From: Escherichia phage Eps7
DNA: 64,000 nt
Sequence record: NC_010583.1
Direction: 5' to 3' (one strand)
The translations under genes and the position numbers were made by a program. Under the pieces are notes generated by a model that saw only the letters and a list, made by a program, of their open reading frames with translations, ran no database searches and was not told the DNA's origin. Every line of letters begins with the position of its first letter. Position 1 is the stretch's first letter. Of the stretch, positions 1,612 to 60,643 are shown piece after piece.

Positions 1612-3277
1612 TTATGCAAAGAATTTACCGTTTTTGAAGTCAATCAAAGTACGTTGCCCGTTTGCATAGGTAATTAAATGCGTTTGCGTCCAGCTTGACG
1701 CGCCCACGTTGTAGCCCATATCAAGCGACCCCGCCACGCCAGCGGTATAAACGCCGCCGTAAATGCTAGCCGTATGAGTATGACCAGTGTTAAGGCGTCC
1801 CAACTTTTTAAACTGCTTAGGATTGCCCCGACTGCCGTTAATGCCATTGTGACCATGTACGCCGCATTCAATGCCAGCGATTTTAAACGACTGGTCAGTA
1901 GTCAGGAAAATAGCGTTAAATTCGCAACCTGCGACACTACGCAAGGCGTAATCTAGCACGTTAAAAGTATCATCCTTTTCAGCAATAGCGGCGTATATAG
2001 CAGCGTTTAGACGGTGATACAATTCCGCGTTTGCGGGATCGTCTTTAATGTTAGCGTTACGATCATCTAACCAGCGGGATAAAGCTAAATCATGGTTAGA
2101 TTCAACAATGATTGTTTGAGAAAAATCACGCTCCATTGATTCTAATACGCGTCCAGTGTCGATAAGATCATCTAGAACCTTGTCACGTCCTGCGGCGTAC
2201 TGTTTAGCAAGGAATACACCACTAGCGCGGTTGTGATGGTTACGCGATGTAAAATCATGCACATCATGAATAAACTGATATTTAGGCTTGAGAATATCAA
2301 GCAAGCTGTTTTCACTAGCCCATGAAGCAACGGCGCATTCATCATCTAGTTTTTCGGCGTGAATATCGCCATATTGCAAGCCTAGAACATGATCGGACGT
2401 TTCAAAACATCCGGTGGGCATAGCGCAAACATTCAAATCATAGAACATTCCGCTTTCATCCATTGTTTCAAGCTGGCGGCAATAAAATTCTCCGTCGTCG
2501 TCAAATTCTACCAGCAAAGCACCGTAATTATGCAGCGCCTCGGCTTTTTGACCTGCTTTCTGCTGAATGTAGTTTTTAAGCGTAGCCGTTCCGGTTGAAT
2601 ACATACGGCGCACTACTTCACCTTTTAACGCTGGCACACTTTCAGCGGTAATTTTAGCGTGACCAATTGCCAGACCTTCAATATTAAAGCCGTGGCGGTT
2701 TCTGCGAATCCTGAAAGCGGATAGTCTGCCGTTGGTAACACGTTAATTTCAGCCATGAAAGCAAAACGGCGATTATTTAAAAATACGTTTTTCTCGCAAA
2801 TATATTTATTAAATGCGGGATCGTATTTAATGCCTTCGTTACCTTCTCCATTCTGGAAGCCGTTTTTATTGTAAATGAATTTACTAACCAGCAATTCACC
2901 GCCGATATATTCAGCGAATTTTTCCAGACTTGCTAAAAAGTTTTTATGCGGGAGGAAGTATTATTTTGAATCGACGTTAGAATAAAACGGCGACCGGATT
3001 TAACTTCCCACTGTTCCACGGTACTAGAAACAATCCCCGCCGCTTCTGGGCGATCATCATTTTTAATCGCCTTTTCAGCTTTTGCCGCTTTCGGTTTCGC
3101 TGGCTTGTTTGCTTCCAGCCAATCACAAATCGCGGTGGAATGTTTCGTTGTATCGTAAACAGCTTTTGAAATATCGTCGCAAACTTCTAATTTAGTAGCG
3201 CGCAAACGCTTACCATAGAAATTAAAATCAGCGGCCATTTTCAGAATTTGAGCTTGTTTTTCTGCGGAAATATTCAT
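1612..3277 (-). CDS. A1: A1-like pre-early protein with metallophosphoesterase domain; reading frame interrupted twice
   Basis: three consecutive same-strand ORFs (2933..3277, 2625..2894, 1612..2637) totalling ~545 aa; GVHGH and GHTHT phosphoesterase-like motifs in the C-terminal piece; ORF ends look out of frame. Confidence 0.55.
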
Positions 3278-3386
3278 AACTAATTCAACTCCTATAAAGG
3301 GATAAAGATTAAAGCTGGCAATATTGCCAAATATAACGCCTTGCCTGAAGTGAGGACAATTTAAAAGGCGTTATAATTTGCAACAT

Positions 3387-3611
3387 TTAATTAATCGGCA
3401 TTAAACTAGAACAAAAGCCAAATACAATGCCAATTGTAAGAAAGATAATTGACAGATATTTTTGAATGTTCGCGTTTTTGCGGAAATTATTTGCGGCGTA
3501 AACGTTATTAATTCCAATTATTGCCAGAATTGACCTCGTATAATTCAGAATAAAAGCGGCGGCAATAATAAATAAACCTAAAATAAACGCTTCGCTAGGA
3601 TAAAAGATCAA
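3387..3611 (-). CDS. small membrane protein (two predicted TM helices)
   Basis: 74-aa hydrophobic ORF. Confidence 0.4.
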   Translation of the reverse strand: MIFYPSEAFILGLFIIAAAFILNYTRSILAIIGINNVYAANNFRKNANIQKYLSIIFLTIGIVFGFCSSLMPIN

Positions 3612-3661
3612 GATTATTCTCCTTTAAGGGTTAGCGGGGAATATTCCCCGCTAGTTAAAAT

Positions 3662-4078
3662 TTATTCACCTGCGGCCTGTTTTACTTCCTCCGCTACGCC
3701 TAACAATTGCGCTACAGCTTCCAGCGTTTCAAGTTTAGCACTTTCAAGGCTTGCCAGATCGTCGGCATCTTTTACGATACCTGAATCAATAGCGTGTTTA
3801 GCGATGACGCGCACATAGTGAGCTTTACGGACACTAGACCCGCCGCCAACTTTACGCGGTTTATCGCTTTTCTGATAGGCTTTTGCACTGGTCAATTTAG
3901 AACGTACAGACACCGGACTTGCAGCGCCAACGGCGGCGGCAATTTCTTTCAAGCCGTCACTATTCGCAAACTCAATCCCGCTTTTAGCGACCATTTCAGA
4001 ATACATAGAAACAGCTTTTTCGGTGTTTTCTTCGTTCCAAGAGAATTTTGCGGTTTTTTCGGTTTTAACGTTAGACAT
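3662..4078 (-). CDS. hypothetical pre-early protein (possible A2-like DNA-binding protein)
   Basis: 138-aa ORF, Lys/Ala-rich, directly downstream of A1-like gene region; assignment by position only. Confidence 0.4.
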   Translation of the reverse strand: MSNVKTEKTAKFSWNEENTEKAVSMYSEMVAKSGIEFANSDGLKEIAAAVGAASPVSVRSKLTSAKAYQKSDKPRKVGGGSSVRKAHYVRVIAKHAIDSGIVKDADDLASLESAKLETLEAVAQLLGVAEEVKQAAGE

Positions 4079-4177
4079 AATTTAATACTCCATTCAATTA
4101 TTAATTAAGGGATTATGATTAACTAATGTTAATCCATATATTCCCCATATTTCAGGGGAATATAAAGTTAGCACTAA

Positions 4178-4429
4178 TTAGCTAATAGCTTGCCATTTAT
4201 CATCTTTCTGAATGATCTTTACAACGTCGCCGGATTTAACGCGAACATTATAAATTGGCTTGCCGTGGTTACTGCGTTCCGTTTCCGCATAGACCGCTTC
4301 AATTTTATCGAAAGGATCTAGCGCCGCACCTTTAATACGTTCGGCTTTTCCGGTTAATTCATCCGTTTTAGTAACGAAAGGAATAAATACAGATTGACCT
4401 ACTTTCGGCGCGGTAATAACGTTTTGCAT
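4178..4429 (-). CDS. hypothetical protein
   Basis: 83-aa ORF ending the minus-strand pre-early block. Confidence 0.4.
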   Translation of the reverse strand: MQNVITAPKVGQSVFIPFVTKTDELTGKAERIKGAALDPFDKIEAVYAETERSNHGKPIYNVRVKSGDVVKIIQKDDKWQAIS

Positions 4430-4563
4430 TTTTAATACTCCGGTTTATTGGGGATTATTCCACAATAGCGCCTCGATACTTTGAAACGCTATTAGATTAT
4501 AATCCGCTAGGAGTTAGCCTAAACATTACCGTTTTTCCAAATTGTTAAAGAGCAGTTACTACG

Positions 4564-4872
4564 GGGAACATCTTAAAACCTATCGGCTAGCGTGTCAAGC
4601 GTTTTTTAAACTTTTTTCGATTTGATGTGAGTTATATAAATCAATCATTATATTACGCCACACCATTTCCAGACCTTGCTGCTTACCTTTCTTGTATTGC
4701 TTGAATCTGTATTTTACAGATCGTTGCGCTACTGTCAACAAATTTTTTTGTTCTGCTATCTAATGCGCTAGCAGGTTTCGCACTAATCACTAAAGCGTTT
4801 TTTGATTTGATCATTATCGTCGATTCCTTATAATGTATAAGTTTACCGCCGATAGGCTTTAAGATGTTCCCT
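4564..4872. repeat. 24-bp inverted repeat pair (GGGAACATCTTAAAACCTATCGGC / reverse complement) separated by ~260 bp
   Basis: 4564-4587 and 4849-4872 are reverse complements with one mismatch; lies in 1.5-kb non-coding region. Confidence 0.7.
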
Positions 4873-5520
4873 AGTTTTTAAAGAGCATGGCGGTAAACTT
4901 CCCCGCCGTGTAATCTTGCGTTTCGTTTCCGTCCCGCCGTCCTACGAGATAAATAATAGCAAATTGAGCGAAAGAGACAAGCGTAATTTTGTAAAGAAGT
5001 GTAAAGACAAACGCCACCGCACCACGTCCAGCGGCGCACTAAATTTAATGAAACGGGCGCGCGAATAACACCAAAACAACCATTTTAGCAAGTAATTTTT
5101 TCATTTATATCTGCTCTAGGGTACTTGACAAAATCTAAAATCCTCGTGGTGAGGTTTTCTCGGTGTACCCCTTATGATTGCCTATCTTTTCCTTTGATGC
5201 GCTTAGAATCGCTTACAGAGCGTTTTAGACCCTGTTAATAACTTATACAAAAAGCAAAAAATGAAATTTAATGAGTTATCCACTTGATTTTTCAAAAAAG
5301 TATTTTCTGCTGTTATTTTTCATTGACAAATAAGTTTAGACGTGCATTGATTGGTTAGCAGACTAACAATCGCTAGGATGATAATCACGCTGGTGGATTG
5401 TAACAGCCGAAACAGTTAGCAGACTATTAATAATCTAAAAACCTATTAGCCAACTAACTATTTCATATTATATAATATACTTATAAATTAAAGAGAAATA
5501 ATAACTATAAGAAACTATCG

Positions 5521-6907: not shown

Positions 6908-6915
6908 TAATTACT

Positions 6916-6938: not shown

Positions 6939-6973
6939 CTATTTCCCTGTTAATTGTTAGGAGACTAGTTATT

Positions 6974-15082: not shown

Positions 15083-15513
15083 TGGATTTTTTCTTTTGTG
15101 TCATGATAAAGATTTCCTGTATCAGTTGGAAGGAATGCCGATTGTGCCTTCGGCGGATGTTGTTTTGCAATCCAGTTGAGGATCAGTACACGGCTAGGAA
15201 CGATATCAGTATTATACCAGAAGTCATGAACCCAATGTCGTGCATCTTCGAACTTACCGAATTTATATGCTTTCTTAAACAATTCAAAACCAAAACAGTC
15301 AGGTGCAAAATCTACATCACGATAAGGAATTACCTTAGAACCTGTGAGATCTTGGATAGCTGCATTAATTTCTGTGTGGGAGTATTTCGACTCATGGAAT
15401 GTATTGAAGAAGCGATAATTGAAGCGTCCATTTGTTTCGACAAACAACTGAATGAATAAATCATTAAATTGTCCATCAAACCAGTAATTCTGTAATCTTT
15501 GCAGTGCTGTCAT
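15076..15513 (-). CDS. hypothetical protein
   Basis: 145-aa ORF. Confidence 0.5.
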   Translation of the reverse strand: MTALQRLQNYWFDGQFNDLFIQLFVETNGRFNYRFFNTFHESKYSHTEINAAIQDLTGSKVIPYRDVDFAPDCFGFELFKKAYKFGKFEDARHWVHDFWYNTDIVPSRVLILNWIAKQHPPKAQSAFLPTDTGNLYHDTKEKIQC

Positions 15514-20719: not shown

Positions 20720-21122
20720 GTTTATTAACGGCCTCCAAAAATGCCTTCATTACTTTTACTGTTGCAGTGCTAAGATCTAAGGTAGCACCTAAGCACTCAG
20801 ATACAGCAGCCTGATAAGGGGCTTTTAGCCTGCCTTCCGGTACTTGTACTTTCTTATAGGTTTTCTTTTTGACTTTATCCAGCATCGTTTCAAGAACATT
20901 GAGAGGCAACTTCTGACCTTCAATATTCACGCCAAGCTCTTCCATTAGCATGGTATTTAAGTCAATACGAGTAAGTTTCTTGCCCTTGCTAGACATACGA
21001 ATTCCCGCCTTTTTCTCAAGTTTTGCACGCTCTGGTGAATCGAGGTCACGTAATGCGATGTTCAATTCATACGGAGCCATATTGTAATGGTTAGCCATCT
21101 GAGTGTAGTAACGATCTGACAT
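20712..21122 (-). CDS. hypothetical protein
   Basis: 136-aa ORF. Confidence 0.5.
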   Translation of the reverse strand: MSDRYYTQMANHYNMAPYELNIALRDLDSPERAKLEKKAGIRMSSKGKKLTRIDLNTMLMEELGVNIEGQKLPLNVLETMLDKVKKKTYKKVQVPEGRLKAPYQAAVSECLGATLDLSTATVKVMKAFLEAVNKHE

Positions 21123-21203
21123 TTGTGAAACTCCTCTGATTCAATTTATACAAATATTATATAAAAATTTACAGCGGACAGAGAAGTCAACTACTTTTTT
21201 ATA

Positions 21204-21620
21204 TTAATGTGCTTGATGTGGGAATCTCTTCCTAACTAGGTACATTGTTATTGGATATATTGAATACATAAGTATAGGGGAGAAAAGGGTGAAATAAGCC
21301 GTGACTCCCCCAGCTAACATCAGTGGTATCAATGCTAGAGTAAGGGCCATAAGAATCATACCGAATGAGACAGCCAGGGCTACTGTTATGCAGTTCTCTA
21401 ACTCCATCCAAAGCCAACAATATTTCGTATTTCTCTGGCAGTTGCATTTGCAAACGCCGAATGTGCCCATAATTATATACTCTAGCCCATGAACGACTTT
21501 CTTTAATGTGTCATTTTGGGTAACTAGTGCGACAACCGTAAGAATTATCATTAAAATGAAAACTACTAGGCTTATCTTCCATATTCCTAGTAACATCATG
21601 GTGAATAGTTCTGCAAACAT
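21204..21620 (-). CDS. multi-pass membrane protein
   Basis: 138-aa ORF with several hydrophobic segments. Confidence 0.5.
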   Translation of the reverse strand: MFAELFTMMLLGIWKISLVVFILMIILTVVALVTQNDTLKKVVHGLEYIIMGTFGVCKCNCQRNTKYCWLWMELENCITVALAVSFGMILMALTLALIPLMLAGGVTAYFTLFSPILMYSIYPITMYLVRKRFPHQAH

Positions 21621-21695: not shown

Positions 21696-22110
21696 TCAGA
21701 CTAATTCTACGTGACCACCGTCGTAAGTACCACGATCGATCTCATCATGATAATCACCAGAACTATTCCAGTCGGCACCAAAACGAAGTTTGACACCAAG
21801 TTCCTTACCAGCTTGTTCAAAAGCCTTCTTAACAGCCCAAAATGCTTCCAGATCTTTCCAATCAATCTTACCATTAATATATGGTGCAAAATCGATAGCG
21901 TCTCCAGTTACATGCTTACTTTTGCTAGGGTCTTTCAAAAATGAAGTACCATTAGCAATGTTTTGGGCACTTTGTGCTACTGTACGAATACCTTGTACGA
22001 TTGTGAAATCATATGGGGATAGTTCTAAAGCCCTACGAGCTACCTTTTGTAGCTCGGGCTTAACAGTTGCTAATTGTTTTTCGTCTTATTTTACCTAAAT
22101 TAAAACTCAT
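21696..22110 (-). CDS. lys: endolysin, L-alanyl-D-glutamate peptidase type; apparent +1 frameshift near 5' end
   Basis: C-terminal 80 aa (HVTGDAIDFAPY...GGHVELV) plus upstream out-of-frame start MSFNLGK; matches recalled T5 endolysin; ATGA overlap with upstream gene. Confidence 0.7.
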
Positions 22111-22761
22111 ATAGATCTACCTAATGATCTTTGCTGCGGTGAGCAAAGCTTTGTTAAGTACTCCTTAAATTGTTCCGAGTCAGCTGTATCTACGGGTTTA
22201 TCCTTCCAGGCAATACCTATGTATCCAGCATAGATATTATTTAGGTTGAAATACGGACAAGTATAGACGTAATTAAAAGTAACGTTCTTAAACGCGGGTA
22301 TATTTGACCCCATATATTTATTTACTTTTACACTTAAATCCGAAGCGTAGTTAAAGCCTTCCAGGTGACGTCTATAAAGTTCAGACGTCTTGTTTACTGC
22401 TTTATCGGCCAAGTCAGCCCTATCCAATTGCGCATTGCTTTCCCATGCAATAATGTTCGAATAATCGTTTATAGCATCGGGTTTATACTTGACTACAAAA
22501 ACAGCATCCGCACCCGTCTGAGAGAAAAGAACCATGCTCTTTTCTCGTGCTACATTAGGAAAGTTATCTATCCTTTGGGTTTGAACATCCTGTAAAACCG
22601 CAGACGTGAGAAGTCTTTAAAAATGACATCACCTCGCTAGTGTTACTTACAAACAAGAAAATAATGACAGCAACTAAGATAGTTAGCAGACGTTTTAGTA
22701 GCGAAGCTGGATCTTTCGCTTCTTGGAGCAGTACCGTTAATAGTTGTAGAAACTTTTCCAC
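22107..22761 (-). CDS. putative holin, frame interrupted
   Basis: ORFs 22564..22761 (N-terminal TM) and 22107..22535 with frame continuity across 22565-22616; coupled to endolysin start. Confidence 0.5.
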
Positions 22762-28078: not shown

Positions 28079-28447
28079 TTAGTCGTAGCACCACCATAAT
28101 CCACGCTTACGCAGATCATGATCGCGATTATAGTCGTAATTTTCTGGATCTTTCATCACATGATGAAGTTCACGACGGTTTCCCTGACGAACCATTTTGT
28201 TAGAATGCCACTTAACGTTCCTACTAACAGAATCCCACCAGTGCCCATCTTTCTTCTCGTTACGGATGATATTTTCCTGAATCTCCTTCTCAATTTCATC
28301 CCAAGTTTTTAGCCCATGCTTCATTGGATCGAACTTGATAATACTTCCACTGTTTACCATCCCTATCCGTGTAGATATACGGAATACGGATATTAGTGCT
28401 ATGAAAGTTATAAGTAGAACGATGTGCATCACGCCAGTGACGATCAC
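28079..28447 (-). CDS. membrane-anchored protein
   Basis: 122-aa ORF with N-terminal TM. Confidence 0.5.
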   Translation of the reverse strand: MIVTGVMHIVLLITFIALISVFRISTRIGMVNSGSIIKFDPMKHGLKTWDEIEKEIQENIIRNEKKDGHWWDSVSRNVKWHSNKMVRQGNRRELHHVMKDPENYDYNRDHDLRKRGLWWCYD

Positions 28448-35212: not shown

Positions 35213-35287
35213 TGGTGCGGTCGGAGGGAATCGAACCCTCAACTTCTGGTTGGCAACCAAAAAATTATACCTTTTAACTACGAACGC
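35213..35287 (-). tRNA. tRNA-Gly (GCC)
   Basis: manual fold: T-arm GAGGGTTCGATTCCCTC, anticodon stem TTTGG/CCAGA, loop TTGCCAA, CCA. Confidence 0.6.
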
Positions 35288-35729: not shown

Positions 35730-36025
35730 ATAATTTATTTACTCAGTTTTGAGTTTTTCGATAGCTTCCTCAACCTCTTTTAGAGCTTCACGACGGGCAT
35801 TCTGTTGCTGCATATCTTGAATTAATGTCAGTTTTTGTTTTTAATTTCTTGATCCCAAACCTTAATATTATTAATCAGACTATCACGATCAGCTTCTAGT
35901 CGAGCAATTGCACGAGTTGTCATATCTATTTCCTCAGTTATTAATGAAAATGGTATCTGTGACTGAATTCAATATCAGTAATGATAGCTGGTTGGCTACC
36001 GGTTTACTTAACTCTACACAGAATA

Positions 36026-38270: not shown

Positions 38271-38608
38271 TTAGCGAATCTCTAAACCCTGGAAATATCG
38301 AGGGAATGGAGAGCCAACTTCAAAATTGATGCCCCAATTAAGTTCAACGAGTTCAGATTTATTAAGATCTAGGCCATTACCTTCAAAGATATAGCCGTAA
38401 ACCGCAGGGAACATAGCTGCTAGATCTTCCATATCGGAATGAGCATTGTGTTCTTCACGGAACTGCTCAACTCTTCAATAGAACTTTTCTAGGAGACTCA
38501 GGTACGATGAACGTTACCACATCAGTAGAATCATCGGTACGATACACCGTAGCTTGGAACAAGCCAACACCTAAAAGGTTTATTGCCGGAGTAGTAAAAA
38601 TATCCATC
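38271..38608 (-). CDS. hypothetical protein, frame interrupted near 38470
   Basis: two adjacent protein-like frames (MDIFTTPAINLL... and ...EQFREEHNAHSDMEDL...) each below track threshold. Confidence 0.35.
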
Positions 38609-41450: not shown

Positions 41451-42395
41451 TTACTTGTTACGCATATCCATGATCATTTGACCATCGTAGCCAGTACCAA
41501 CAACAGTCTGCGGTACACCACCTTGTATTTTTCAGCACGAAGCATTTCAAACTTCCAGCTGCTTCCAACGAATCATTTCAGGAGTAATGGTACGTTGCAG
41601 CGCGGCGTTAGCTTCAGCTTCTTTCTTAGCTGCGTACAGTTTAGCATCTGCGTCACGTTCGTTAGCTACTGCCATGTTTTCACGAGCAGAACGATCAGCT
41701 TCAGCTTGCTTAACTTTCTGCTGTGCTTCTTGTTCAACACGAGCCAATTCAGCTTTAGCGGCGTTAACTTGTTCTTCACGAACTTTTGTGTTTTGTACCT
41801 GTTCCATGATTACAGGTGGCAGAGTAATATCCTGAAGGAATACTTGCTTAACCGTGTAACCATAAGGACGCGCGTACTCTTCTACTTCTTGCTGAATAGC
41901 AGTTTGCAGTTGAGCCTGAATCTTAGCGTCGAACAGATCTTGTGCTTTTGGTACAGACTTACCAAACTCACGAATCGTAGATAGCATCTTCTCTTCAACG
42001 TACTTGTTCAGAGCTTGATCCTGAGTACCTGCGTTAACACGGTTCATAGGAGCTTTAGCACCATCAAACTGCAACATAACGGTAATGTCAACAGTGGACT
42101 TAAACTTATCCTGGCTAGGAACCTGAAGTTTATCCAGTTTCATGGAAATATCTTTCGTACTAAAAGTATCAAAAGAAGCAAATGGGTTAACAATATGGAA
42201 GCCTGGCAATACAGGATTAGGGCTAACTTTACCCAGGAAGGTTTGGGTCTTAACAGTACCATCCTGAACAACTGTGTAGGAATTGAGAGCCAGAATAAGA
42301 GCGCCAAGACCAACTACAGCACCAACACCCCAACGTTTGATAGTGCGAATTACTTTTTGCTCAGAAGTCAGTTCTTTAGTGTTTTTAGTAAACAT
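41451..42395 (-). CDS. SPFH/band-7 (stomatin/prohibitin-like) membrane protein, C-terminus frame-shifted
   Basis: 282-aa ORF with N-terminal TM and long Gln/Ala coiled-coil region; protein-like frame continues to stop near 41451. Confidence 0.5.
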
Positions 42396-44524: not shown

Positions 44525-44992
44525 TTAAGTTTTCTTAACCACAGGCTTGTAGAACGTATGGCCTTGAATCTTCGTTGTTTTCTTAAACTTCTTTGTCCAG
44601 TACGGTTTATCTTTACCACTATGGAAGTATAACGCTCCATGTGTTGGATCTTGTGGTAAATCAACGTAGTATATCACTCTAGCTAAATTCTTAGCAACTT
44701 GCCAAGCCTCATCGGTTTTATCAACTTTTGGTCTCTTGGCCACCCAAGAGAACTGGTTAGACTGATATACTACTTTACAGTAAGAATCAGGAAAGTACCA
44801 GAGTTAACACGGTTTTTTAGTAACCTGTGCAACTGCGATCATTCCTTTAGTGCCCTCACCTCGTGCTTCGAAGTAGATATTTTTTGCAATGCAATCAATC
44901 TGCTTTGAGTCGTAGGTCGCATGACTATTGAAGCTATAGGTTAGGGCAGCTATTAAAAGCAAAGCTGCCTTCATTTTATTTACTCCGGCCAA
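44525..44992 (-). CDS. SleB-like cell wall hydrolase with signal peptide, frame interrupted
   Basis: ORFs 44804..44992 (signal peptide, NIYFEARGE) and 44525..44743 (HGALYFHS); intervening frame reads VNSGTFPDSYCKVVYQSNQFSW. Confidence 0.5.
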
Positions 44993-46612: not shown

Positions 46613-47385
46613 AATTATTTTCCTTTTGTTGTTCTCTCAAATTTATGAATATATTATACAGAATTTGGAGCTGAAAGCAAATCAAATTTTGATTTTTTTC
46701 GATCATGATGGCTACACAATAACTTTCAACTAAAGCATCGAATGCGGGATCATGTTTCACTGGATAGATTCCATAACGAATGGTATCCATCTTTTCCATT
46801 TTAGCTTTTGCCCAGCTAGCACCTTCGGCTTCTAGATCTTTATAGCTATAACCAGCTTGCATCCACTGATTACGGAAAGATCGAACGTTACCTAAGTTCC
46901 AGAATTTCCACGGAACTATTTCTTCATGGGTTCCGGCATGGAACGTATTTGCAGAGTAGATTGTCATATCAAACTCTGGGCCATTGCCGTAATACAGAGC
47001 ATTATCTCCTAGAGACAATTCCATAATGTTCTGAGCCATAGAGAAGGCAGCATAATTAGAGCCTACGTCATTAGTGCAGTGATGCTTACCATCACGGAAG
47101 GCAATCAGTTTAGGATTACGACCATTTAGAGCCTCCATAATATGGAGCGCAGATGGACTGTTTTTTAGCTTGATCCATCCAGAATGCAATAGTAGAGGCA
47201 GTTACCTTAGCACCCGCATTAAGCTGATCTTGAACGTCTAGAGTAACGAATACCAGATCAGGATCTTTATCAATTCCGTGCATCGCTACAAAAGCGAAAG
47301 AAGGCATTGCAATATGAGTAGTACCGCAATTTCCTGGAGTACCTAGAGATTCAATGTCCAGCATACCAAAGGGCTTGAATTTCAT
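46599..47385 (-). CDS. putative exonuclease-like protein, frame interrupted
   Basis: ORFs 47116..47385 (MLDIESLG acidic motif) and 46599..47189 overlap; 3' end of downstream piece runs into promoter. Confidence 0.4.
46653..46680 (-). promoter_or_regulatory. sigma70-type early promoter
   Basis: ATTATA 46653-46658, AAGCAA 46675-46680, 16-bp spacer. Confidence 0.55.
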
Positions 47386-50682: not shown

Positions 50683-51537
50683 TTACACCGTAAATGGATA
50701 TGCAATAGCAGGATGGTGTTCATAGCCACGAACAGTAAAATCATCCTTACTTACCCACGTTAATACATCATCCAAAGTTCTAATATTTGGATTGATTTCT
50801 AAAGTAGGAGGTGCAAAAGGTTCACGATCGAATTGCTTGTGCTCCATCAGAACATTATACTGATCTTCATAGATATGAAGATTAATAATCTTTTGACGAG
50901 CAATACCTGGCTTAAGACCTGTAATCTGTGCCATAATAGCTAGAAGTGCATAGCATTGCACCATATTAAATACTTGGCCCAGCAAGAAATCATTAGACCT
51001 CTGGAAAGAGTTTAGGTATAGTGTATCACCTAAAATAGAGAATTGATGGGTATGCATACACGGACGTAGGCATCCTTTACGAAATTCCCCACGGGTTCCA
51101 AAAGTTAAAATTTCTCCACGATCGTCAATCCCTCTTTTCAAATTATGATAGACTTTGGCTAACTGATCAAATACCATACCATCAGAATTAGTCCAATGAC
51201 GTCCTTGAACACCATAGACTCGTCCCATATCATCCTCGCCTTTACGGAATGGATTACCTAGCCAGGCAATATTTTCATTTGCATTAGCATTCCATGTATT
51301 AACACCAATAGCGCGGAATTGTGCTGCTGAGTCGTACCCACGGAGATATCCGATCATTTCCATTATTGCTTGTTTAGCAAATGCTTTACGAGTAGTTACT
51401 AGCGGCAGTTCTCCTGCTCCTACGTTAAAGGTAAAGTCTGCATCAATAATGGTTAGGCAACGAACCCCTGTTCTAGGATTCGTTACCCATACACCCTCTT
51501 CAAGAATACGTTTTCCAGTTTCAATATATTGCTTCAT
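50683..51537 (-). CDS. thyA: thymidylate synthase
   Basis: 284-aa ORF with catalytic-Cys region [10 protein letters not shown]; adjacent to DHFR and RNR genes. Confidence 0.8.
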
Positions 51538-52062
51538 TTAAATATCACCAATTCTTGTAAGAATGAAAGCGTTTTATCTGCATTCTGTCCTGCCACATAG
51601 TCCATTCTAGTTGCCATTGAATTATAAGTAATATGATGATGCAGATGTACATCAGCAGATAATGGTGTGGCTGAAGTAATAGTAGAGATATACGCCATAT
51701 CTAGATGATTTTTTGACATACATTTCAAGAAGCAGAGTTGCTCCCCCTAATACTACAGTTACCTCTTCCTTGAGAAAATCAGGCAGACGGTATCCAATGT
51801 TGCTTATGCGTGTAGCTGATCTTATAGAGTTCGGTAGTGGTCTATTTGCATAAATAAATAGGTCAGAATCTCCTAGTATTCTTTTTTGCAGAGTCTCAGG
51901 GAATGCTAACCAAGTTCCTGCTCCTACAATAATATTGTCAGGTGCCAGAGAATCCAATGTAGCATAGAAGATATCTAGTTCTTCTTTGAAAGAACCCCAG
52001 GGGAGCTTACCATTGAGGCCGAACTCCCCATTCGGCCCAGTTGCATAGATTGCTGCTATCAT
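51534..52062 (-). CDS. dihydrofolate reductase, frame interrupted near 51700
   Basis: N-terminal MIAAI...GKLPW DHFR motif; two overlapping frames 51652..52062 and 51534..51728. Confidence 0.6.
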
Positions 52063-53207
52063 TAGAACATATCCTCAAATTCGTTGCCAAGATCTTTCAG
52101 AGTATCAGCAGATGTTTCTGTTACTTGACCTACACGATACGCTGCGCCAATCTGAATCTCTTGCGGAGCAGGTTGTAAAGATGTAGTATCCAACCAGTTC
52201 ATAATCCACGGAATAGGGTTCTTAGTAATTACAGGTAAGTGGCTTGGCCATTCTACACCAATGTGCATAAATGCGTTACGTCCTACAAAGTAAAGGTATT
52301 CTTCAAGCAGTTCTGCGTTCAAACCAATCAGACTGCGGCCTTTAAAGATAAAGTGGCCCCATTCAATCTCAGTTTTCAGAGTTTTTAGGAGTTGTGTTGG
52401 TGCTTTAGCTAATGCTTCATCTACCAGATCTTTATCAAATTGCTGGAACATAATCTGGATGATAGCTTTAGACATTTGAGTATGTAGAGCTTCATCTTTA
52501 GCGATTAATTGCAGGTTCTTAGCAATACCTTGCAGAATATCGTTCTCTGCTAGAGCAAAGGTACATGCAAAGGATGCGTAGAACTGCATTGCTTCCAGAC
52601 CGTAGATTGCAAAGTAAGCATCTAACAGCTTAGCCTGAGTTTCACGTTTAACTTCAGGGAACTCAGTTTCTGGATAAGTATTATCACCACGATGATCACG
52701 TACTGCAAGGAAATACTGACCTAACAGATACAATTCATCAAACAGTTCAACAGAATCTGCGATACGTGCAAATGCTTCTTGGTTTTTAGTTACAGAATCA
52801 ATAAATTCTGCTGGATCAGTCAGAACGTTACGAATAATATTACTATACGCACGGCTGTGCAGATCTTCGAAGTAGCTCCACTGCTTGAGCATACCCTCCA
52901 ATTCAGGACGGCTTACAAGCGGCATAATAGCTGCTTCAGGAGCACGGCTAATGAAAGAATCTGTTTGGGTCTGCCATGCTAAGTTCAGGAGAGTAATTTC
53001 CTGAATATCACGCGGAAGGTTTGGCCATTGTTTCTTATCGGCTTCCAGACTGATTTCAGTTTCAGTCCAAAATTGAGAACGTTGCAGAAGTGCTAGACGC
53101 TCAAGTTCAGGATGTGCTACACGAACGTAATCTGCGATACCAAGAGAATCGCCCAGGAAAAGGTCAGCGTTAGTATGATCCCAATTCAGGTTTAGTAAAG
53201 TAGTCAT
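52062..53207 (-). CDS. nrdB: ribonucleotide reductase small subunit
   Basis: 381-aa ORF with ferritin-like DEALH region; sits between DHFR and nrdA. Confidence 0.75.
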   Translation of the reverse strand: MTTLLNLNWDHTNADLFLGDSLGIADYVRVAHPELERLALLQRSQFWTETEISLEADKKQWPNLPRDIQEITLLNLAWQTQTDSFISRAPEAAIMPLVSRPELEGMLKQWSYFEDLHSRAYSNIIRNVLTDPAEFIDSVTKNQEAFARIADSVELFDELYLLGQYFLAVRDHRGDNTYPETEFPEVKRETQAKLLDAYFAIYGLEAMQFYASFACTFALAENDILQGIAKNLQLIAKDEALHTQMSKAIIQIMFQQFDKDLVDEALAKAPTQLLKTLKTEIEWGHFIFKGRSLIGLNAELLEEYLYFVGRNAFMHIGVEWPSHLPVITKNPIPWIMNWLDTTSLQPAPQEIQIGAAYRVGQVTETSADTLKDLGNEFEDMF

Positions 53208-53238
53208 TGATTTTCCTCTTTCTCACTATTTCAGGAAT

Positions 53239-53267
53239 ATTATAGCAAATCTGGTAGCGATTAGCAA
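53239..53267 (-). promoter_or_regulatory. sigma70-type early promoter upstream of nrdB
   Basis: ATTATA 53239-53244, TAGCAA 53262-53267, 17-bp spacer. Confidence 0.6.
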
Positions 53268-53273
53268 GTAAAA

Positions 53274-53756
53274 TTATAAACTATCAAGCTCCAATAGTTT
53301 AGCATCGCGCCATTCTATAGCATCCTCTAATTCTTTAAATGTTTTAGTATGTTTTACACCTTTCCTAGCTATTTGGACTTGATAAGATCCACTTGCTTTT
53401 TGGTGTATATTTTTAATACCTAACTTATTGTCCTTATGTGCTCCAACGTTCTTTCCATTACTAAATCTGTTAGAGGCTAGTAAATTAATTGCTCTATTAT
53501 CATGACGTATTCTATTATCATGATCTACTTCTTTTGGGATGTACCCATGCGTAATATAGAATGCTAGGATATGTGCGTAGTATTTTGTACCTCTTACCTG
53601 CATTACTATGTATCCTGAGCATTTTTCCAAAGAGCCTGCCTCTTTGCCTGCAAACTTAGTATTAAATGATTTATCTTCTCTAGGTTTGTGGGTAAAGATT
53701 CCGGTTTCTGGATTATAGTCAAATAACTCAGCTATTTCTTTGTATTTTTCTTCCAT
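53274..53756 (-). CDS. HNH homing endonuclease
   Basis: 160-aa ORF with HNH motif EVDHDNRIRHDNRAINL; located between nrdA and nrdB. Confidence 0.7.
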   Translation of the reverse strand: MEEKYKEIAELFDYNPETGIFTHKPREDKSFNTKFAGKEAGSLEKCSGYIVMQVRGTKYYAHILAFYITHGYIPKEVDHDNRIRHDNRAINLLASNRFSNGKNVGAHKDNKLGIKNIHQKASGSYQVQIARKGVKHTKTFKELEDAIEWRDAKLLELDSL

Positions 53757-53811
53757 AATCTAAAATTACAGCCATTATAGGCCTAATAAAGGGGCTTTCG
53801 CCCCTTATTTA

Positions 53812-56204
53812 TTATAATTGACAACCACCAGATGCGCATCCAGCAGCAGCTTCCTCTCCTGCACCTCCACCATTTTCAGTGTTGAAGTTTGCATAATAAA
53901 AGGTTTTCCAACCGTACTTAACAGCAGTCATAAAGTCACGAACTACTACTGGGCCGGGAATGATTTCATTCTCGAACTTGGTGTAGTCATAGTACATATT
54001 CGTACTGATAGACTGGCTGAAGAATTTCTGCATGGTTGCTACCCATTTGATCCACTCGATACGATCTACATCATAAGCCAGTTTATAGCTCATTAATGTA
54101 TCCCAATCAGTTGCACCTGGAGCAATTGCAATTACTTTATTAACTGCACTACCCTTGATAGATACGATCTTACGGGGCGGTTCGATAGAGTTAGTAACAC
54201 CTAGCAGTACAGAGGAACTTTCACCTGGCATCTGAGCAGTCAGAACAGAGTTGCGCATACCATATTTCAGAATATCTGCACGCAGAGATTCCCAATCCAT
54301 TTCTAGACCTACAGTTACCAGTTCATCAACAGTTTTCTTGTACGTGTCGATTACCAGAGTTCCTTGCGAAGGCTTAGTACGATTAAACCAGTCACATGCA
54401 CCTTGTTCTTTAGCCAGACGTACAGAGGCTTTATGTAGGAAGTAGGACAGCTTTTCAGCTTCACGGTGAATCCAGTTACGTGCTTCAACACCTTCGTAAG
54501 CCAAACCTTCTGCTGCCATTGCACCTGCTGCGTTCATCAGACCAATACCAACGTTACGACGTTTCTTAGCCGTGTACTTCCATAGTTGGGAATGGGTAAT
54601 CCTGAATCTCGATGATTGTATCAACGAATTTCAGAAGGATGTAGCAAGTTTTCTCCCATTCAGCCAGAGATTCCATGCGGCCTAGTACAACACCACCTAA
54701 GTTACACAGAGATACTTCACCAATATCTTCTGGACGCATATCGTCTAACTGATCTTGGGTTTTATACAGTTCCGTAACGTGATGGAATGGACGGGTGGCT
54801 GAGTAATTCAACACAAAAGGGTTGGTCATACGAATCGGGTCAAGGAAGTTACCATGACGGTTAGATTCACCAATGTGATGAGCATACATACGCCCTGTTT
54901 CCATACGGATACGTAACCAAGTATCTAGGATTTCTTTTGCAGAGATTCTAGGAGCTGCTGGAATTGTTTTTCCTTCGTGGTCGATCTTTGTAAGAGAAGC
55001 CACACGTTTCTCCGCTGCCACGTAGATTTCTTCAAACTTAGCCTCATCTTCACCATAAAACGCTTCATGAACTTCTGGTGCGTAGAAGTAGGACATTAGC
55101 GTAATATCTTCGTTTTTCAGGTAACGTTTTAACAGAAGGTTGTTAAAGCTCAGAGAATAATCCATCTTATCGATTTTATTCTCGTCTGTAGCACGTTGCT
55201 GCTTAACCTGCATCAACTGAATGATTTCAGGATCGAAGTATGGATAAGACACAGTAGCAGAACCGCCACGGGTTTGCTGAGTGTTAGCTTTTACTGATCG
55301 GTCAATGTGTCGATAATATGGCAGTTTTCCGGAATGCGGGAATGCCCCATTTCGCACCGGATCAGCAATTGATCGGCTTTCAAGATGATACCCGATTCCC
55401 GCTCTGGCTGCGACCATTTTGAAGACGATGTGCTCGGCTGTGTCGATTGAATCCAGCGTGTCAGTGGAATCCACGAGACAGCAACTAGCAAATCCACGGT
55501 CACTAGAGCGCAGGCCAACCAGTGGCGGCGTAGGAACGTTGATTTTGTGGAGCGACATTGCATTGTAGAGGTCGATTGCATCTAGGATTGTCCAGTTAGG
55601 TTGAGATAACATCGCCATTGCCATACCCATGTAGGCAAACTGCGGGGTTTCATAAATTTCACCAGTTGCAATATTACGACGAGAATACTTGTCGAAGAAC
55701 TGTTTCAGTCCACCACTGGTGAATAAACGATCGCGATCATGATCAATAACTTGGTTCAGAGCGTCAAACTGATCATCGCTAATCCATGCACTCATGTCTT
55801 CCCAGCGCCAACACGAACCATATGATCGTGGAAGAAACGCAGAGAAGGGGTTCAAAGGAATCATATAGGCGTTTACGCATCTGCGCAAGACGTAATTCCT
55901 TTGCTACAGTATCATATGCTGGGTTGTCTTTGATAAGACCTTCAGCGGCTTTAATTAACACATCTTGGAGGGTATCGGAATCTACAACACCTTTTGGTAG
56001 ATTTTTCTGGGCAGACATAACGACGGCAGACCAACTTACGTCAGTTGCTTTACATGCCCATGCAGCCCAATCATTGAGTTTTTCAGGAGCAAAGTCCTGA
56101 ACAGTACCGTCACGTTTAATTACTTTTTCAATACTATGGCTCATTGGGGTTTCCTTTTTGTAGTTATCAGGATTTAGGAAATATTCTACTTTGTTTTGGG
56201 TCAT
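53812..56204 (-). CDS. nrdA: ribonucleotide reductase large subunit, frame interrupted twice
   Basis: three consecutive ORFs (55779..56204 with ATP-cone VIKRDGT, 54566..55888, 53812..54624 ending in Cys-rich tail); breaks near 55800-55880 and 54570-54620. Confidence 0.75.
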
Positions 56205-56267
56205 TATGCAAGTACAATTTTACAGATAAAAAGAGCCCGGATATTTTCATACCCAGGCTCGTCTGTC

Positions 56268-56510: not shown

Positions 56511-56511
56511 A

Positions 56512-56845
56512 TTACACCTTCCCCATATCCTTAAAGATATCGTAGAATGCTTTAGACTCCGGTGAGCGAACGTTGTCGATCAGTTCGATCATAGAGAAAG
56601 GAGAGTTTTCGTACTTCTCATAGACTTCCATAAGAAGTGCTAGACCTGAATCACCCTTGATGTCTTTCTGAGCTATATCCCCACAGATAATTAAACGACA
56701 ATCTTGTCCTACACGAGTCAGGAGACAGATCATTGCTTCAACGGAGATATTCTGAGCTTCATCGACAATTACATAGGAGTTGTTGAATGTTGCCACGCTT
56801 TCTTGAACCATTGCGGTTCTCTCTTTTTTGACGTGCTTTTCCCAT
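56512..56845 (-). CDS. PhoH-like P-loop ATPase fragment (Walker B only)
   Basis: VIVDEAQN and CGDIAQKD motifs; probable start MGKARQKRE upstream with frame shift at an A6 run. Confidence 0.45.
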
Positions 56846-56918
56846 AAATAACACTCCTATAGTGTACTTCGCTAACAGAGGATCAACAAAAAGATCTTGT
56901 TTATCAACTTACAAATAT

Positions 56919-56947
56919 ATTATACCAATATATGCGGGAGAAAGCAA
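56919..56947 (-). promoter_or_regulatory. sigma70-type early promoter
   Basis: ATTATA 56919-56924, AAGCAA 56942-56947, 17-bp spacer. Confidence 0.55.
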
Positions 56948-57138
56948 CTACAATTTTAAATAAGCCTATGATATTGCATTTAAATAAAAAATTTGCTTGC
57001 TTTTATTGGGAGATGTATGGTACTAGATAATCATTTTATATCGCGTACACGGGCGCGTGATTATACTATTTTTAATAGAGGTTGGCAAATAAAATTTTTT
57101 GACCCAGATCAATTTACAGAATGTTATAGTAAAATATT

Positions 57139-57168
57139 GTTGACATCCGCCTTCGAATGAGTTATAAT
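57139..57168 (+). promoter_or_regulatory. consensus sigma70 promoter (TTGACA-17-TATAAT) upstream of nrdD
   Basis: TTGACA 57139-57144, TATAAT 57163-57168; GGAGG RBS before ATG 57198. Confidence 0.65.
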
Positions 57169-57197
57169 AGTAGTCTTAGTTAGAGAAGGAGGGTATA

Positions 57198-59072
57198 ATG
57201 AATCGCAATGAAGAACTAAAATATAAAGGAATGCAGTCCTTAATTCGAAACTGCAAAGAAATTATCGAAGGTTCAGCAGATGAAGAGCTGCTGTTTAATA
57301 ATGCCAATAAACCCTCAGAACGTTTCCCTACACAAAGGGATATGCTTGCAGGGGAATTGAGTAAATATCTGATTCTGGAAGAAATGCCAATACAGATTCG
57401 AAATGCTCACATGATTGGTGATATTCACTTCCATGATGCTGATTACGCTGCGTTAGGTATGACTAACTGTTGCCTGGTTGCTTTGGAAGATATGTTGAAG
57501 AATGGTATGAAGGTTGGTAATGCTGAAATCAGTACACCAAACTCTATTACTACTGCGGCTGCTATTACAGCTCAGATTATCACTCAAGTTAGCTCCCATC
57601 AGTATGGTGGTACTTCTGTAGACCGATTAGATGAAGTATTGGCTCCTTATGTTCGTAAGTCTTACGATAAGAATCATGCGTTTGCAAAGCGTTGGACTAA
57701 GGATGAAGCCAAAGCATCTGTAATGGCTACGGAAATGACTGAGAAAGAAGTGTACGATGCCTGTCAAGGTCTAGAATATGAAATCAATACGATGTTCAAC
57801 TCTAATGGTCAGAGTCCATTTATTACCTTTGGGTTTGGTCTAGGAACTTCTTGGGAAGCACGTCTTGTACAGAAAGCAATCCTAGAAGTGCGTATGGATG
57901 GTTTGGGTATCAATAAACGTACTGCTATCTTCCCTAAACTGGTATTTGTTCTGCGAGATGGCGTAAACATGAAGCCTGGAGATGTCAACTACGATATCAA
58001 GAAGTTGGCTATGAAGTGTACTGCCGAACGTATGTATCCTGACTATATCAGCTATGATAAGGTTGTAGAAGTTACGGGAGACTACAAAGTCTCTATGGGC
58101 TGTCGTTCATTCCTGGCTGCTGCGGAAGATGGTGAAACTTCTGGTCGTAACAACTTAGGCGTTGTTTCCGTAAACCTTCCTCGAATCGCTATCGAAGCGG
58201 AAGGAAATATTGATCTATTCTTCGATCTGCTTGAGCTGCGTGTGGATACCGCGTTAAAAGCATTGGAGTGGAGAGTTGATCGCTTAAAATACATTCAAGC
58301 TAACGCTGCGCCCATCCTCTATATGTCAGGAGCCTTTGGATTACGTCTGGGGCCAGATGAATATGTATTTGATCATTTCTACAAGCGTGCTTCTGTATCC
58401 CTAGGATATATTGGCTGCCACGAAATGTTGCAGCTCATGTTTGGTAAAGATGTTGATACAATGTCTGAGTCTTGTATCAAGTTCGTTCAACGTGTGTTAC
58501 AATACATGCGTGATCGTGCTGATCAGAAGAAGGAAGAGACTCAATTAGGGTATAGTCTGTATGCTACACCATCTGAATCTCTATGTGATCGCTTCTGTCG
58601 TCTAGATCGTGAGTATTTCCCAGAGCATGAAGATATTCTGGCTAAAGGATATTACACTAACTCTCATCACCTTGATGTGGAGCGTAAGGTTGCTCCAAAT
58701 GTGAAGTTTGATTATGAGTCTAACTTTACTCCTATTGCTTCTGGTGGGTGCATTTCCTATGTGGAATTACCCGATATGAAACGATTCCCAGATGCGCTGG
58801 AATGGGTTATTAACTATGCTGCAAGTAAGGTTCATTACTTCGGTATTAATACTCCAGTAGACTCCTGTGGGGAATGTGGGTTCTTGGGTGAGACTATAGC
58901 TTCTGAGGATGGTTTCAAATGCCCTATTTGTGGCAACCATGACCCTGAGACTCTTGAGGTAACTCGTCGAGTTTGTGGATATCTTGGAAATCCAGGTGCT
59001 CGTCCGTTTAACCCAGGCAAACAGCATGAGGTAATGGGTCGAGTGAAACATCAGGACATTCGCGCTAAATAA
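57198..59072 (+). CDS. nrdD: anaerobic ribonucleoside-triphosphate reductase
   Basis: 624-aa ORF ending with glycine-radical motif RVCGYLG and CPICG zinc-ribbon. Confidence 0.8.
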   Translation: MNRNEELKYKGMQSLIRNCKEIIEGSADEELLFNNANKPSERFPTQRDMLAGELSKYLILEEMPIQIRNAHMIGDIHFHDADYAALGMTNCCLVALEDMLKNGMKVGNAEISTPNSITTAAAITAQIITQVSSHQYGGTSVDRLDEVLAPYVRKSYDKNHAFAKRWTKDEAKASVMATEMTEKEVYDACQGLEYEINTMFNSNGQSPFITFGFGLGTSWEARLVQKAILEVRMDGLGINKRTAIFPKLVFVLRDGVNMKPGDVNYDIKKLAMKCTAERMYPDYISYDKVVEVTGDYKVSMGCRSFLAAAEDGETSGRNNLGVVSVNLPRIAIEAEGNIDLFFDLLELRVDTALKALEWRVDRLKYIQANAAPILYMSGAFGLRLGPDEYVFDHFYKRASVSLGYIGCHEMLQLMFGKDVDTMSESCIKFVQRVLQYMRDRADQKKEETQLGYSLYATPSESLCDRFCRLDREYFPEHEDILAKGYYTNSHHLDVERKVAPNVKFDYESNFTPIASGGCISYVELPDMKRFPDALEWVINYAASKVHYFGINTPVDSCGECGFLGETIASEDGFKCPICGNHDPETLEVTRRVCGYLGNPGARPFNPGKQHEVMGRVKHQDIRAK

Positions 59073-59079
59073 TGAATCA

Positions 59080-59113
59080 GCCAGATCGCTAGTCGATCTG
59101 GCTTTTATTTTAT
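59080..59113 (+). terminator. rho-independent terminator after nrdD
   Basis: AGCCAGATCG-CTAGT-CGATCTGGCT followed by TTTTATTTT. Confidence 0.7.
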
Positions 59114-59141
59114 TTGCTTTCGAGCTAAAACTTATGTATAA

Positions 59142-59453
59142 TTGATTTATAAATTTGAGAGGAGAAAGACTATGAGCAAATTGCTTCCGAAAGTAGATGT
59201 TTCCCATCTTGGAGAGCCTAGTGAAGAACGTAAGGCTCTTGATTGGCTAGGTGGATTTGATTATCGTCGTGTTGTTGCAACATGGAATACTGGTAAGGTT
59301 AAAAAATTTCGTGTGCATTATGTTGGCAAAGATAAGTGGCTCTGGATCGATTATGAAGAATCGAAGGGATCTACTAAGGCTGTAAAAGTCTATCGTATGA
59401 ATGGGTATTATTATGCTCATTGTGATAAGAATGAATTTACAGTACAGAACTAA
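59142..59453 (+). CDS. hypothetical protein
   Basis: 103-aa ORF with GAGAGG RBS; lacks CxxxCxxC so not an NrdG activase. Confidence 0.5.
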   Translation: MIYKFERRKTMSKLLPKVDVSHLGEPSEERKALDWLGGFDYRRVVATWNTGKVKKFRVHYVGKDKWLWIDYEESKGSTKAVKVYRMNGYYYAHCDKNEFTVQN

Positions 59454-59462
59454 GGAACAAGA

Positions 59463-59666
59463 ATGAAGAACGTAAGACATCTTAAATATCGCTTAATTTA
59501 CAACGGACGTATGGAAACAGAAGATCTAGCTCAGCTAGCGATCAATTCAGATGAAGTTACGGTTCGTGCTTTATCTATTGAGAAGCTGCGTGCTTCTTAC
59601 GAAAATCGTATTATGGAACTGGAGGAGAAACTGTATGGACTTCTTGAATCAGAATCTAAAAAATAA
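59463..59666 (+). CDS. hypothetical protein
   Basis: 67-aa ORF. Confidence 0.45.
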   Translation: MKNVRHLKYRLIYNGRMETEDLAQLAINSDEVTVRALSIEKLRASYENRIMELEEKLYGLLESESKK

Positions 59667-59829
59667 TCTAGAAAACATGCTTATGGAGCAGTGGAACTCT
59701 GGGTATAATGCTGGGGTGGCTACTTGTATTGCGGGGTTGGATATGCTTATTAAGCAAGAAAAGGTACGTCCAGAAGAAGCAATTCTACTCCAAAATATCA
59801 TCGAAGGATTCAAGCAAGGAATCGTATAA
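59635..59829 (+). CDS. hypothetical protein
   Basis: track ORF 59551..59829 trimmed to Met after GGAGGAG RBS. Confidence 0.45.
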   Translation: MDFLNQNLKNNLENMLMEQWNSGYNAGVATCIAGLDMLIKQEKVRPEEAILLQNIIEGFKQGIV

Positions 59830-60643
59830 TGCGTAGACTAATCGTTGTTAGTGGTGCAGGTTTGAGTGTAGATAGTGGTGTTCGTGCTTTCCGTACTGAT
59901 ACTGCTAGTGGTAAAGCGTTGTGGGATGATTATGACCTAGAAGAGGTATGTAATATTCATGCCTTTCGTGGTAATTTTACCATAAAACTCATATGTTTTA
60001 CAACAAACGTCGTGAAGAGTTACAAACTGTTGAACCTAACCTAGCTCATTTGCGTATTGGTGAATGGTATAAACGGTATCCAAATCAAGTGGTAAACCTT
60101 ACTACCAATGTTGATGATCTAATCGAACGTGCTGGAGTGCCGAGAGAAGATATACTCCATATTCATGGATATCTGAAAGAAATTATTGTAGAGCATGCGT
60201 TCGACCAGACACGTGATGTTATTGATATTGGGTATAGTTCTATTGATCCAGATGACTTTGATTGGGTTAAACCTAACGTTATCTTCTTTGGTGAGGTTGC
60301 TCCTGCCTATAAAACAATGTATGAGGTTTTTGATGGTATCACCAGTCATGATATGATCATCATTGTTGGGTGCTCTAACCAAGTAATTAACTTCTACTGG
60401 GAGCTATTTCCTGTTCTGAATCTTACTGCTGCAAAACTTATGGTAGTTAACTATTACGATAGTGCAGTAGCTATGGAACCAGGCTATCAGGGCATGACTC
60501 GTAGTGAAATGTATCAGTTAGAAGAACGTGGTATTCCTTACTGGAGTAAAGGTGCTGTGGATGCCTTTAGTGATCCCGATTTTATTGCTCGTGTGGAAGC
60601 TCATCTAGAAGGTAAACCCTATGTTCAACAAAAGCATGTGTGA
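59829..60643 (+). CDS. Sir2-family (sirtuin-like) protein, frame interrupted near 60000
   Basis: N-terminal VVSGAGLSVDSGVRAFR and downstream TTNVDDL...HIHG resemble sirtuin motifs; two overlapping frames. Confidence 0.5.

Follow-up and report, generated by a model that had tools for sequence, protein, structure and literature searches.

Known relatives of the DNA analysed here include phages PSa2 (OL770310), SB6 (MK809530) and BSP22A (KY787212), whose Epseptimavirus genomes are intact. The window, which is the whole 64,000-nt stretch of Escherichia phage Eps7 (NC_010583.1), is likewise an Epseptimavirus, a T5-like Salmonella/E. coli phage. It is co-linear with the three genomes at 92–98% identity (96.6–97.7% to PSa2), shares their gene order, and carries the same 29 tRNAs as PSa2. 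When 110 genes were aligned four ways, however, about 17 genes were privately broken in the window, including A1, holin, endolysin, nrdA and DHFR, compared to 0–6 in PSa2, SB6 and BSP22A, where only small hypothetical ORFs were affected. These frame shifts are very probably errors in the deposited consensus rather than mutations of the phage, and we infer from sequence comparison that they arose during sequencing.

To quantify the excess, we used gene-based and polarised four-way tests in place of whole-genome pairwise indel counts, which were dropped since intergenic and divergent regions dominated them and they gave no discrimination. Mapping reference proteins onto the reading frames revealed 12–13 multi-frame genes in the window, compared to 0–2 in reference-to-reference controls. 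The strict four-way alignment, restricted to clean context, contained 27 private 1–2 nt indels in the window versus 3, 6 and 6 in the references, the 3 being those of PSa2, an equally diverged sister. Private frame-breaking indels numbered 32 in the window and 1, 14 and 5 in the references, and per private substitution they were 7–25 times more frequent in the window. Private substitutions were not raised (431 in the window, 383 in PSa2), which counts against an error origin to the extent that the errors would have to be almost purely indels. In total, the window held about 45 small private insertions or deletions, and about 17 protein-coding genes, plus a single tRNA, were damaged in this record alone.

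We then looked for the same alleles in other records. Each indel site was covered by 4–57 IMG/VR or reference loci, none of which carried any of the private indels. Among the GenBank phage records matching at three probed sites (127–217 per site), the A1 +2 allele was found in 0/205, the holin allele in 0/217 and the DHFR T6 allele in 0/127. The affected features, in window coordinates, are as follows.

124, minus strand: dmp (deoxynucleoside-5'-monophosphatase); T5>T4 shifts the frame of the C-terminal 28 aa, an allele shared by 0/39 loci.
1612–3277, minus strand: A1 (555 aa in relatives); three frames, from a −1 at 2683 (coding strand A3>A2) and a +2 at 2954, alleles present in 0/40 and 0/32 IMG/VR or reference loci, respectively.
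4743, minus strand: 72-aa ORF; T6>T7.
15087, minus strand: two ORFs that overlap, orthologous to PSa2_00025 and PSa2_00026; T5>T6 in both.
18577, minus strand: phosphoesterase; A3>A2 in codon 2, the frame being lost at the gene start.
21696–22110, minus strand: endolysin (M15 peptidase); about five single-base events at 22075–22100, net +1, with a stop at codon 16.
22107–22761, minus strand: T-type holin; T3>T2 and C2>C1 at 22608–22611, net −2.
28309, minus strand: hypothetical ORF (orthologue of BSP22A_0059); A4>A5.
35213–35287, minus strand: tRNA-Gly(GCC); with one base too many at 35259, the anticodon stem has 6 bp, compared to the canonical 5 bp in PSa2.
35739–35923, minus strand: 61-aa ORF; GG>G at 35836 (−1).
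38271–38607, minus strand: 112-aa ORF; a stretch of about 40 nt (38466–38497) holds four 1-nt events, net −2.
41451–42395, minus strand: SPFH/Band-7 gene; one base missing at 41525 and one extra at 41549, with a stop among the eight shifted codons.
44525–44974, minus strand: SleB-like cell-wall hydrolase; A4>A3 at 44791 and T5>T6 at 44813, with a stop in between.
46682–47385, minus strand: gene with an Rv2179c-like 3'-5' exoribonuclease domain; T5>T6 at 47161 and T6>T7 at 46693.
51534–52062, minus strand: DHFR; T5>T6 at 51709 and an in-frame 3-nt difference at 51624.
53812–56204, minus strand: nrdA; four frame segments, with +1 at 54577, −1 at 55803 and −1 at 55848.

Additionally, four events in nrdA formed a patch at 54795–54818 with a net change of zero, and a T4>T3 change lay at 46663, just downstream of the exoribonuclease-domain gene. 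All 29 tRNAs were still detected, and tRNA-Gly(GCC) was the only one with a private indel. A preliminary description of this DNA had placed 12 disrupted loci, and all 12 were recovered at or near those positions. It had not listed dmp (124), the 72-aa ORF (4743), the overlapping ORFs (15087), the phosphoesterase (18577), the ORF at 28309, tRNA-Gly (35259) or about 10 non-coding events, and indel sites also extended beyond 1612–60643, the interval it had considered. It had described single-base shifts, but several events were 2 nt long or formed multi-event patches. It had also noted nearby compensating pairs that restore long frames; the pairs in the SPFH and SleB-like genes enclose a stop codon, so these ORFs are not rescued.

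Reverting the private indel columns alone yielded full-length ORFs with 95–100% identity to their PSa2, SB6 and BSP22A orthologues, demonstrating that the private indels suffice to account for all broken ORFs. The stops that seemed to persist in the reverted nrdA, DHFR and 38.3-kb ORF were artefacts of MAFFT gap placement inside multi-event patches; in the ORF map, the window ran without a stop across the nrdA (54566–55888) and DHFR (51534–51728) patches.

We next characterized the sites themselves. Run-length changes made up 33/42 (79%) of the 1-nt events, and runs of at least 4 nt accounted for 16/42, compared to 6.3% of bases (p = 2e-9); the earlier statement that the shifts sit mostly at homopolymers thus holds if runs of at least 2 nt are counted but fails for runs of at least 4 nt. 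The direction of change varied with run length (Fisher p = 0.005), runs of 4–6 bases being mostly one too long and runs of 1–3 bases mostly one too short. The events at 54577, 55848, 59169 and 62376 and the +GG at 2954 were not run-length changes. Gaps of at most 50 nt between neighbouring events occurred 15 times versus 1.7 expected, and three dense patches at 22.08, 38.47 and 54.80 kb held 4–5 events per 30–40 nt in surroundings that were otherwise invariant. Private substitutions also appeared to cluster around the indels, but the same signal was present in divergent regions of SB6 and BSP22A, so this confounded measure was used qualitatively only. Phase-variable (contingency) homopolymer tracts were rejected as an explanation, since the tracts measured 1–7 nt and did not vary in any locus spanning them. 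With respect to coding sequence, the window indels fell 17 coding to 10 non-coding against a coding content of 70% (p = 0.40), showing no coding depletion, whereas the control indels avoided coding sequence (4 coding, 11 non-coding; p = 6e-4). The absence of coding depletion, together with the affected tRNA, indicates that no selection filter acted on the indels.

On these results, the underlying genome is very probably an ordinary, intact Epseptimavirus of the EPS7/PSa2 lineage, with mononucleotide run lengths miscalled at a rate of about 0.7 sites per kb when the DNA was sequenced or its consensus built. Runs of 4–6 would mostly have been over-called by one base and runs of 1–3 mostly under-called by one, with the errors concentrated in short low-quality patches. 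Such errors take no account of function and would therefore be spread over coding and non-coding DNA according to the length of each, breaking about 17 protein genes and distorting one tRNA along the way. The preliminary description had likewise favoured sequencing error over real pseudogenes, and this view gains support from the privacy of the indels, their blindness to coding sequence, the patches, the run-length changes, the damage to A1, holin and endolysin, and the synonymous bias of substitutions described below. Both flow-based 454/Ion Torrent chemistry and nanopore consensus are known to miscall the length of homopolymer runs. The pattern in the window is compatible with run-length miscalls of either the flow-based or the nanopore type, or with thin Sanger coverage. 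Indels are far more numerous than substitution errors, run-length changes dominate with longer runs enriched, over- and under-calls both occur, and events cluster in weakly supported patches regardless of gene function. It differs from typical miscalls of this type in the many events at very short runs (2>1, 2>3) and in the few that leave run length out of play altogether.

Two lesions were of another kind.

59829–60643, plus strand: Sir2-like gene, split by T5>T4 at 59975–59978.
56512–56845, minus strand: PhoH remnant, with a private 419-nt deletion whose junction lies at 56787/56788.

The Sir2 run was T5 in 23/24 other loci, but its T4 allele was common to PSa2 and MET_P1-197_41, in a gap-free match, and both of these annotate two CDSs. 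The window allele is like the lineage-specific split of PSa2, which is annotated as SIRT5_1/SIRT5_2. The Sir2 shift, previously counted among the errors, is therefore probably a genuine inherited polymorphism, as judged from the shared allele; such an inherited split holds for one of the about 45 events, the others being in no record examined. In PhoH, the lesion described as a single-base shift proved to be the private 419-nt deletion, which takes approximately aa 20–158 and thus most of the match to the PhoH/AAA ATPase domain (aa 44–244 in PSa2). A homopolymer miscall could not produce this loss. It is a real, if tentative, possibility that the record is of mixed origin, with most small indels being errors and the PhoH deletion, like the Sir2 shift, being genuine to the isolate. 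The junction is clean with flanks 98–100% identical to relatives, and the Sir2 split provides a precedent for a real gene-inactivating change in the lineage. Conversely, the breakpoint showed no microhomology, the junction was present in none of the 423 records covering the region, nor in IMG/VR or the JGI metagenomes, and in so error-prone a record a mis-join or clone deletion of PhoH is equally plausible. If true, the deletion would make the isolate a T5-like phage that is naturally PhoH-null. Only two items in the set are possibly biological, namely the inherited Sir2 split and the PhoH deletion.

The same two lesions bear on whether the small indels are themselves real, which would make this T5-like genome heavily pseudogenised, defective or mutation-accumulated. 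It might, for instance, be a non-viable member of a population, come from a mutagenised stock or have been copied by a slippage-prone polymerase. The lineage has at least one shift that is real and inherited, and the large PhoH deletion sets the record apart from relatives beyond run-length calls. Among real slippage mutations, homopolymer indels are also the commonest kind, and in non-essential genes, such as dmp, DHFR and nrdA, individual sites may carry a real mutation of recent origin. As an account of the whole set, this is very unlikely. Private substitutions were 277 synonymous versus 148 non-synonymous overall and 66 versus 28 in frameshifted genes, with intact genes behaving alike; the synonymous share of 65–70% indicates that the genes were under selection, and relaxed selection on substitutions was not seen in the affected genes. 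The indels do not avoid coding sequence, unlike those of relatives, and none of them is common to another record. To our knowledge, 4–5 single-base indels within 30–40 nt match no known mutational signature. T5-like phages are strictly lytic, and thus a genome with A1, holin and endolysin destroyed could not persist; here, A1 lies in three frames and holin and endolysin are both truncated. A1 is essential for T5 viability (bioRxiv 10.1101/866236).

A further explanation is that the shifts are decoded, with full-length proteins arising through transcriptional slippage or programmed ribosomal frameshifting at A/T runs. Several events do create A6–A7 runs on the mRNA strand, and such runs can allow low-level slippage. 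Nevertheless, the sites are not conserved, relatives having a single unbroken ORF at every site but Sir2; many changes are C2>C1, G2>G1, 2-nt or multi-event changes lacking a slippery motif; and shifts occur in both directions, with non-coding DNA and a tRNA affected equally. Decoding of this kind is therefore exceedingly improbable. It is highly improbable, too, that a T5-like genome tolerates or decodes dozens of frameshifts, those in essential A1 and the lysis genes among them, whether by widespread transcriptional or ribosomal slippage or as a defective phage with helper co-infection; a weaker form of this idea would hold the PhoH deletion alone to be real.

Taken as errors in the deposited consensus, the frame shifts are a data-quality problem rather than biology, and their significance lies in curation. 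When the record is annotated from its ORFs, about 17 conserved genes come out split or truncated, including A1, holin, endolysin, nrdA, DHFR and the SPFH, SleB-like, exonuclease-like, phosphoesterase and dmp genes. The resulting fragments can seed spurious small-protein families, bias the core- and pan-genome counts of Demerecviridae, and pass for pseudogenes or programmed frameshifts. The site coordinates given above enable targeted correction of the record. Finally, the homing endonuclease gene of the nrdB–nrdA interval had seemed to lack 300 nt, but the difference was traced to a 298-nt tandem duplication in SB6, the window being normal at this position.

The window came from a T5-like phage of the genus Epseptimavirus (Demerecviridae) and covered the left part of its genome. 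It was co-linear with Escherichia phage PSa2 (OL770310), with an identity of 96.6-97.7%, and likewise with Salmonella phage SB6 (MK809530) and BSP22A (KY787212). We used the annotated proteins of PSa2 (n = 113) and BSP22A (n = 122) as tblastn queries, and 12-13 reference proteins lay in at least two reading frames on the window, compared with 0-2 when references were searched against each other. In four-way gene alignments (n = 110, 49.5 kb in total), frame-breaking indels private to one genome numbered 32 in the window, spread over 19 genes, compared with 1 in PSa2, 14 in SB6 and 5 in BSP22A, corresponding to 0.074 per private substitution in the window versus 0.003-0.010 in the references. 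The whole window was also tiled, and an indel was counted only if its 15-column flanks showed an identity of 90% or more across the four genomes; under this rule, 27 private indels of 1-2 nt remained for the window versus 3, 6 and 6 for the references. PSa2 is the fair control because its private branch length equals that of the window (383 and 431 private substitutions, respectively). When each gene was read in the reference frame, about 17 protein genes were broken in the window alone and none privately in PSa2. In total, the window held about 45 events (about 0.7 per kb). All 12 loci for which the preliminary description had proposed frame shifts were confirmed, each within a few tens of bases; about ten events in non-coding DNA had been overlooked, as had the following indels:

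124, deoxynucleoside-5'-monophosphatase gene (dmp)
4743, 72-aa ORF
15087, two overlapping ORFs
18577, phosphoesterase
28309, ORF
35259, tRNA-Gly(GCC)

Alignment with orthologues, suggested earlier as a means of placing each indel, was run against PSa2, SB6 and BSP22A, and only the private indel columns were undone. The reverted ORFs were intact and full length, with 95-100% identity to their orthologues; those restored were dmp, A1, the small ORFs at 4743 and 35836, the ORF at 15087, endolysin, holin, the Band-7 gene (SPFH), the cell-wall hydrolase gene (SleB) and the exonuclease-like gene. PhoH joined this list after the return of 419 nt. Leftover stops in nrdA, DHFR and the 38.3-kb ORF were rejected as gap-placement artefacts, and the ORF map showed the nrdA and DHFR patches to be stop-free in the window.

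Among the IMG/VR or reference loci spanning each site (4-57 per site), none of the window's private events was found. In a collection of 50,697 phage records, the A1 +2 allele was present in 0 of 205 matching records, the holin -2 allele in 0 of 217 and the DHFR T6 allele in 0 of 127. The window's private indels (17 coding, 10 non-coding) agreed with random placement at 70% coding (P = 0.40); those of the three references (4 coding, 11 non-coding) were depleted in coding DNA (P = 6e-4). The window's indels had thus passed no selection filter, and a tRNA gene was among their targets. Private substitutions in the window were 65% synonymous (277 synonymous, 148 non-synonymous), and 70% synonymous within the frameshifted genes (66 and 28); these genes were therefore under purifying selection along the window's own branch. 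Frameshifts are far more damaging, and their near-neutral number is incompatible with such a history. A1 was split into three frames, and the Pfam-identified holin and endolysin were truncated. T5-like phages are strictly lytic, and a genome with broken A1, holin and endolysin would therefore be unable to propagate. A1 is one of two T5 terminal-repeat genes essential for viability (bioRxiv 10.1101/866236). These five independent lines (privacy, absence of a selection filter, substitutions, gene function and the sufficiency of reversion) point to errors, as the preliminary description had suspected, and all five contradict a genuinely pseudogenised or defective genome, which we consider very improbable.

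The earlier view that the shifts sit mostly at homopolymers held in part: 33 of the 42 one-base events changed the length of a mono-nucleotide run, and runs of at least 4, which hold 6.3% of bases, contained 16 of the 42 (P = 2e-9). On the coding strand, A5>A6 was found in DHFR, SleB and the exonuclease-like gene, and A3>A2 in A1 and the phosphoesterase; further changes were A6>A7, TT>T, CC>C and GG>G. Additions outnumbered losses 12 to 4 in long runs (4-6) but were outnumbered by them 4 to 13 in short runs (1-3; Fisher P = 0.005), and this run-length-dependent direction may be the fingerprint of a base-caller or platform. The events were also strongly clustered: 15 pairs of neighbours lay no more than 50 nt apart versus 1.7 expected (maximum 9 in 20,000 simulations). 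Three dense patches each held four or five independent single-base indels per 30-40 nt, in sequence otherwise invariant across all relatives:

22075-22100, endolysin start
38466-38497, 38.3-kb ORF
54795-54818, nrdA

Nearby indels cancelled each other in SPFH, SleB, the nrdA patch and the 3' end of the exonuclease-like gene. The compensating pairs described earlier therefore regained the frame in some cases, but the SPFH and SleB ORFs were still cut because a stop lay inside the out-of-frame stretch. Programmed frameshifting or transcriptional slippage is an extremely remote explanation, because the sites were unconserved, the shifts ran in both directions and included multi-event patches as well as CC>C and GG>G, and non-coding DNA was affected equally. 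In tRNA-Gly(GCC) (35213-35287), the extra base lay in the 5' arm of the anticodon stem and gave an aberrant 6-bp stem; the gene was still called by ARAGORN, and the base is probably another consensus error. With substitutions hardly in excess and run-length changes prevailing, the pattern would be consistent with consensus errors of a flow-based or nanopore platform, or with thin coverage. These results support the view that the indel pattern belongs to the record and not to the phage, and is not a biological feature; it calls for caution in annotation and comparative genomics based on this record.

Two loci listed earlier as single-base errors proved different. In the Sir2-like gene (59829-60643), T5>T4 at 59975-59978 splits the ORF, but the same T4 was found in PSa2 (annotated SIRT5_1 and SIRT5_2) and Salmonella phage MET_P1-197_41 (two CDSs), with T5 in 23 of 24 other loci. 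From these alignments, the change would most simply be an inherited, genuine lineage-specific allele. An internal ATG at 59993 is a possible restart for a putative 216-aa C-terminal Sir2 piece. In PhoH (56512-56845), the lesion was a 419-nt deletion (junction 56787/56788) removing about residues 20-158 and with them the bulk of the PhoH/AAA ATPase domain match, which in PSa2 spans aa 44-244. The deletion was private: 423 phage records covered the region, and the best matches listed among them each needed two pieces spanning 620 nt; the exact junction had no match in IMG/VR or JGI metagenomes, and no microhomology was found at it. Either a genuine deletion or a mis-join during assembly could account for it.

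The sole Pfam match of 46682-47385 was an Rv2179c-like 3'-5' exoribonuclease domain (E = 1.3e-7), and its orthologues carry the product name 'metallopeptidase' in relatives; judged by this match, 'exonuclease-like' would fit better than the GenBank name. The homing-endonuclease region (53150-53790) matched SB6 at 100% identity across 639 nt, and the gene was not in PSa2, though the rest of the window was closest to PSa2, which fits a mosaic gain by homing. Between nrdB and nrdA, the SB6 gene contained a 298-nt tandem duplication (MK809530 about 53834-54432; 20835-21433 in the SB6 stretch L004), which accounts for its two 'homing endonuclease' CDSs; the segment was single-copy in the window (53274-53756) and in two IMG/VR loci.
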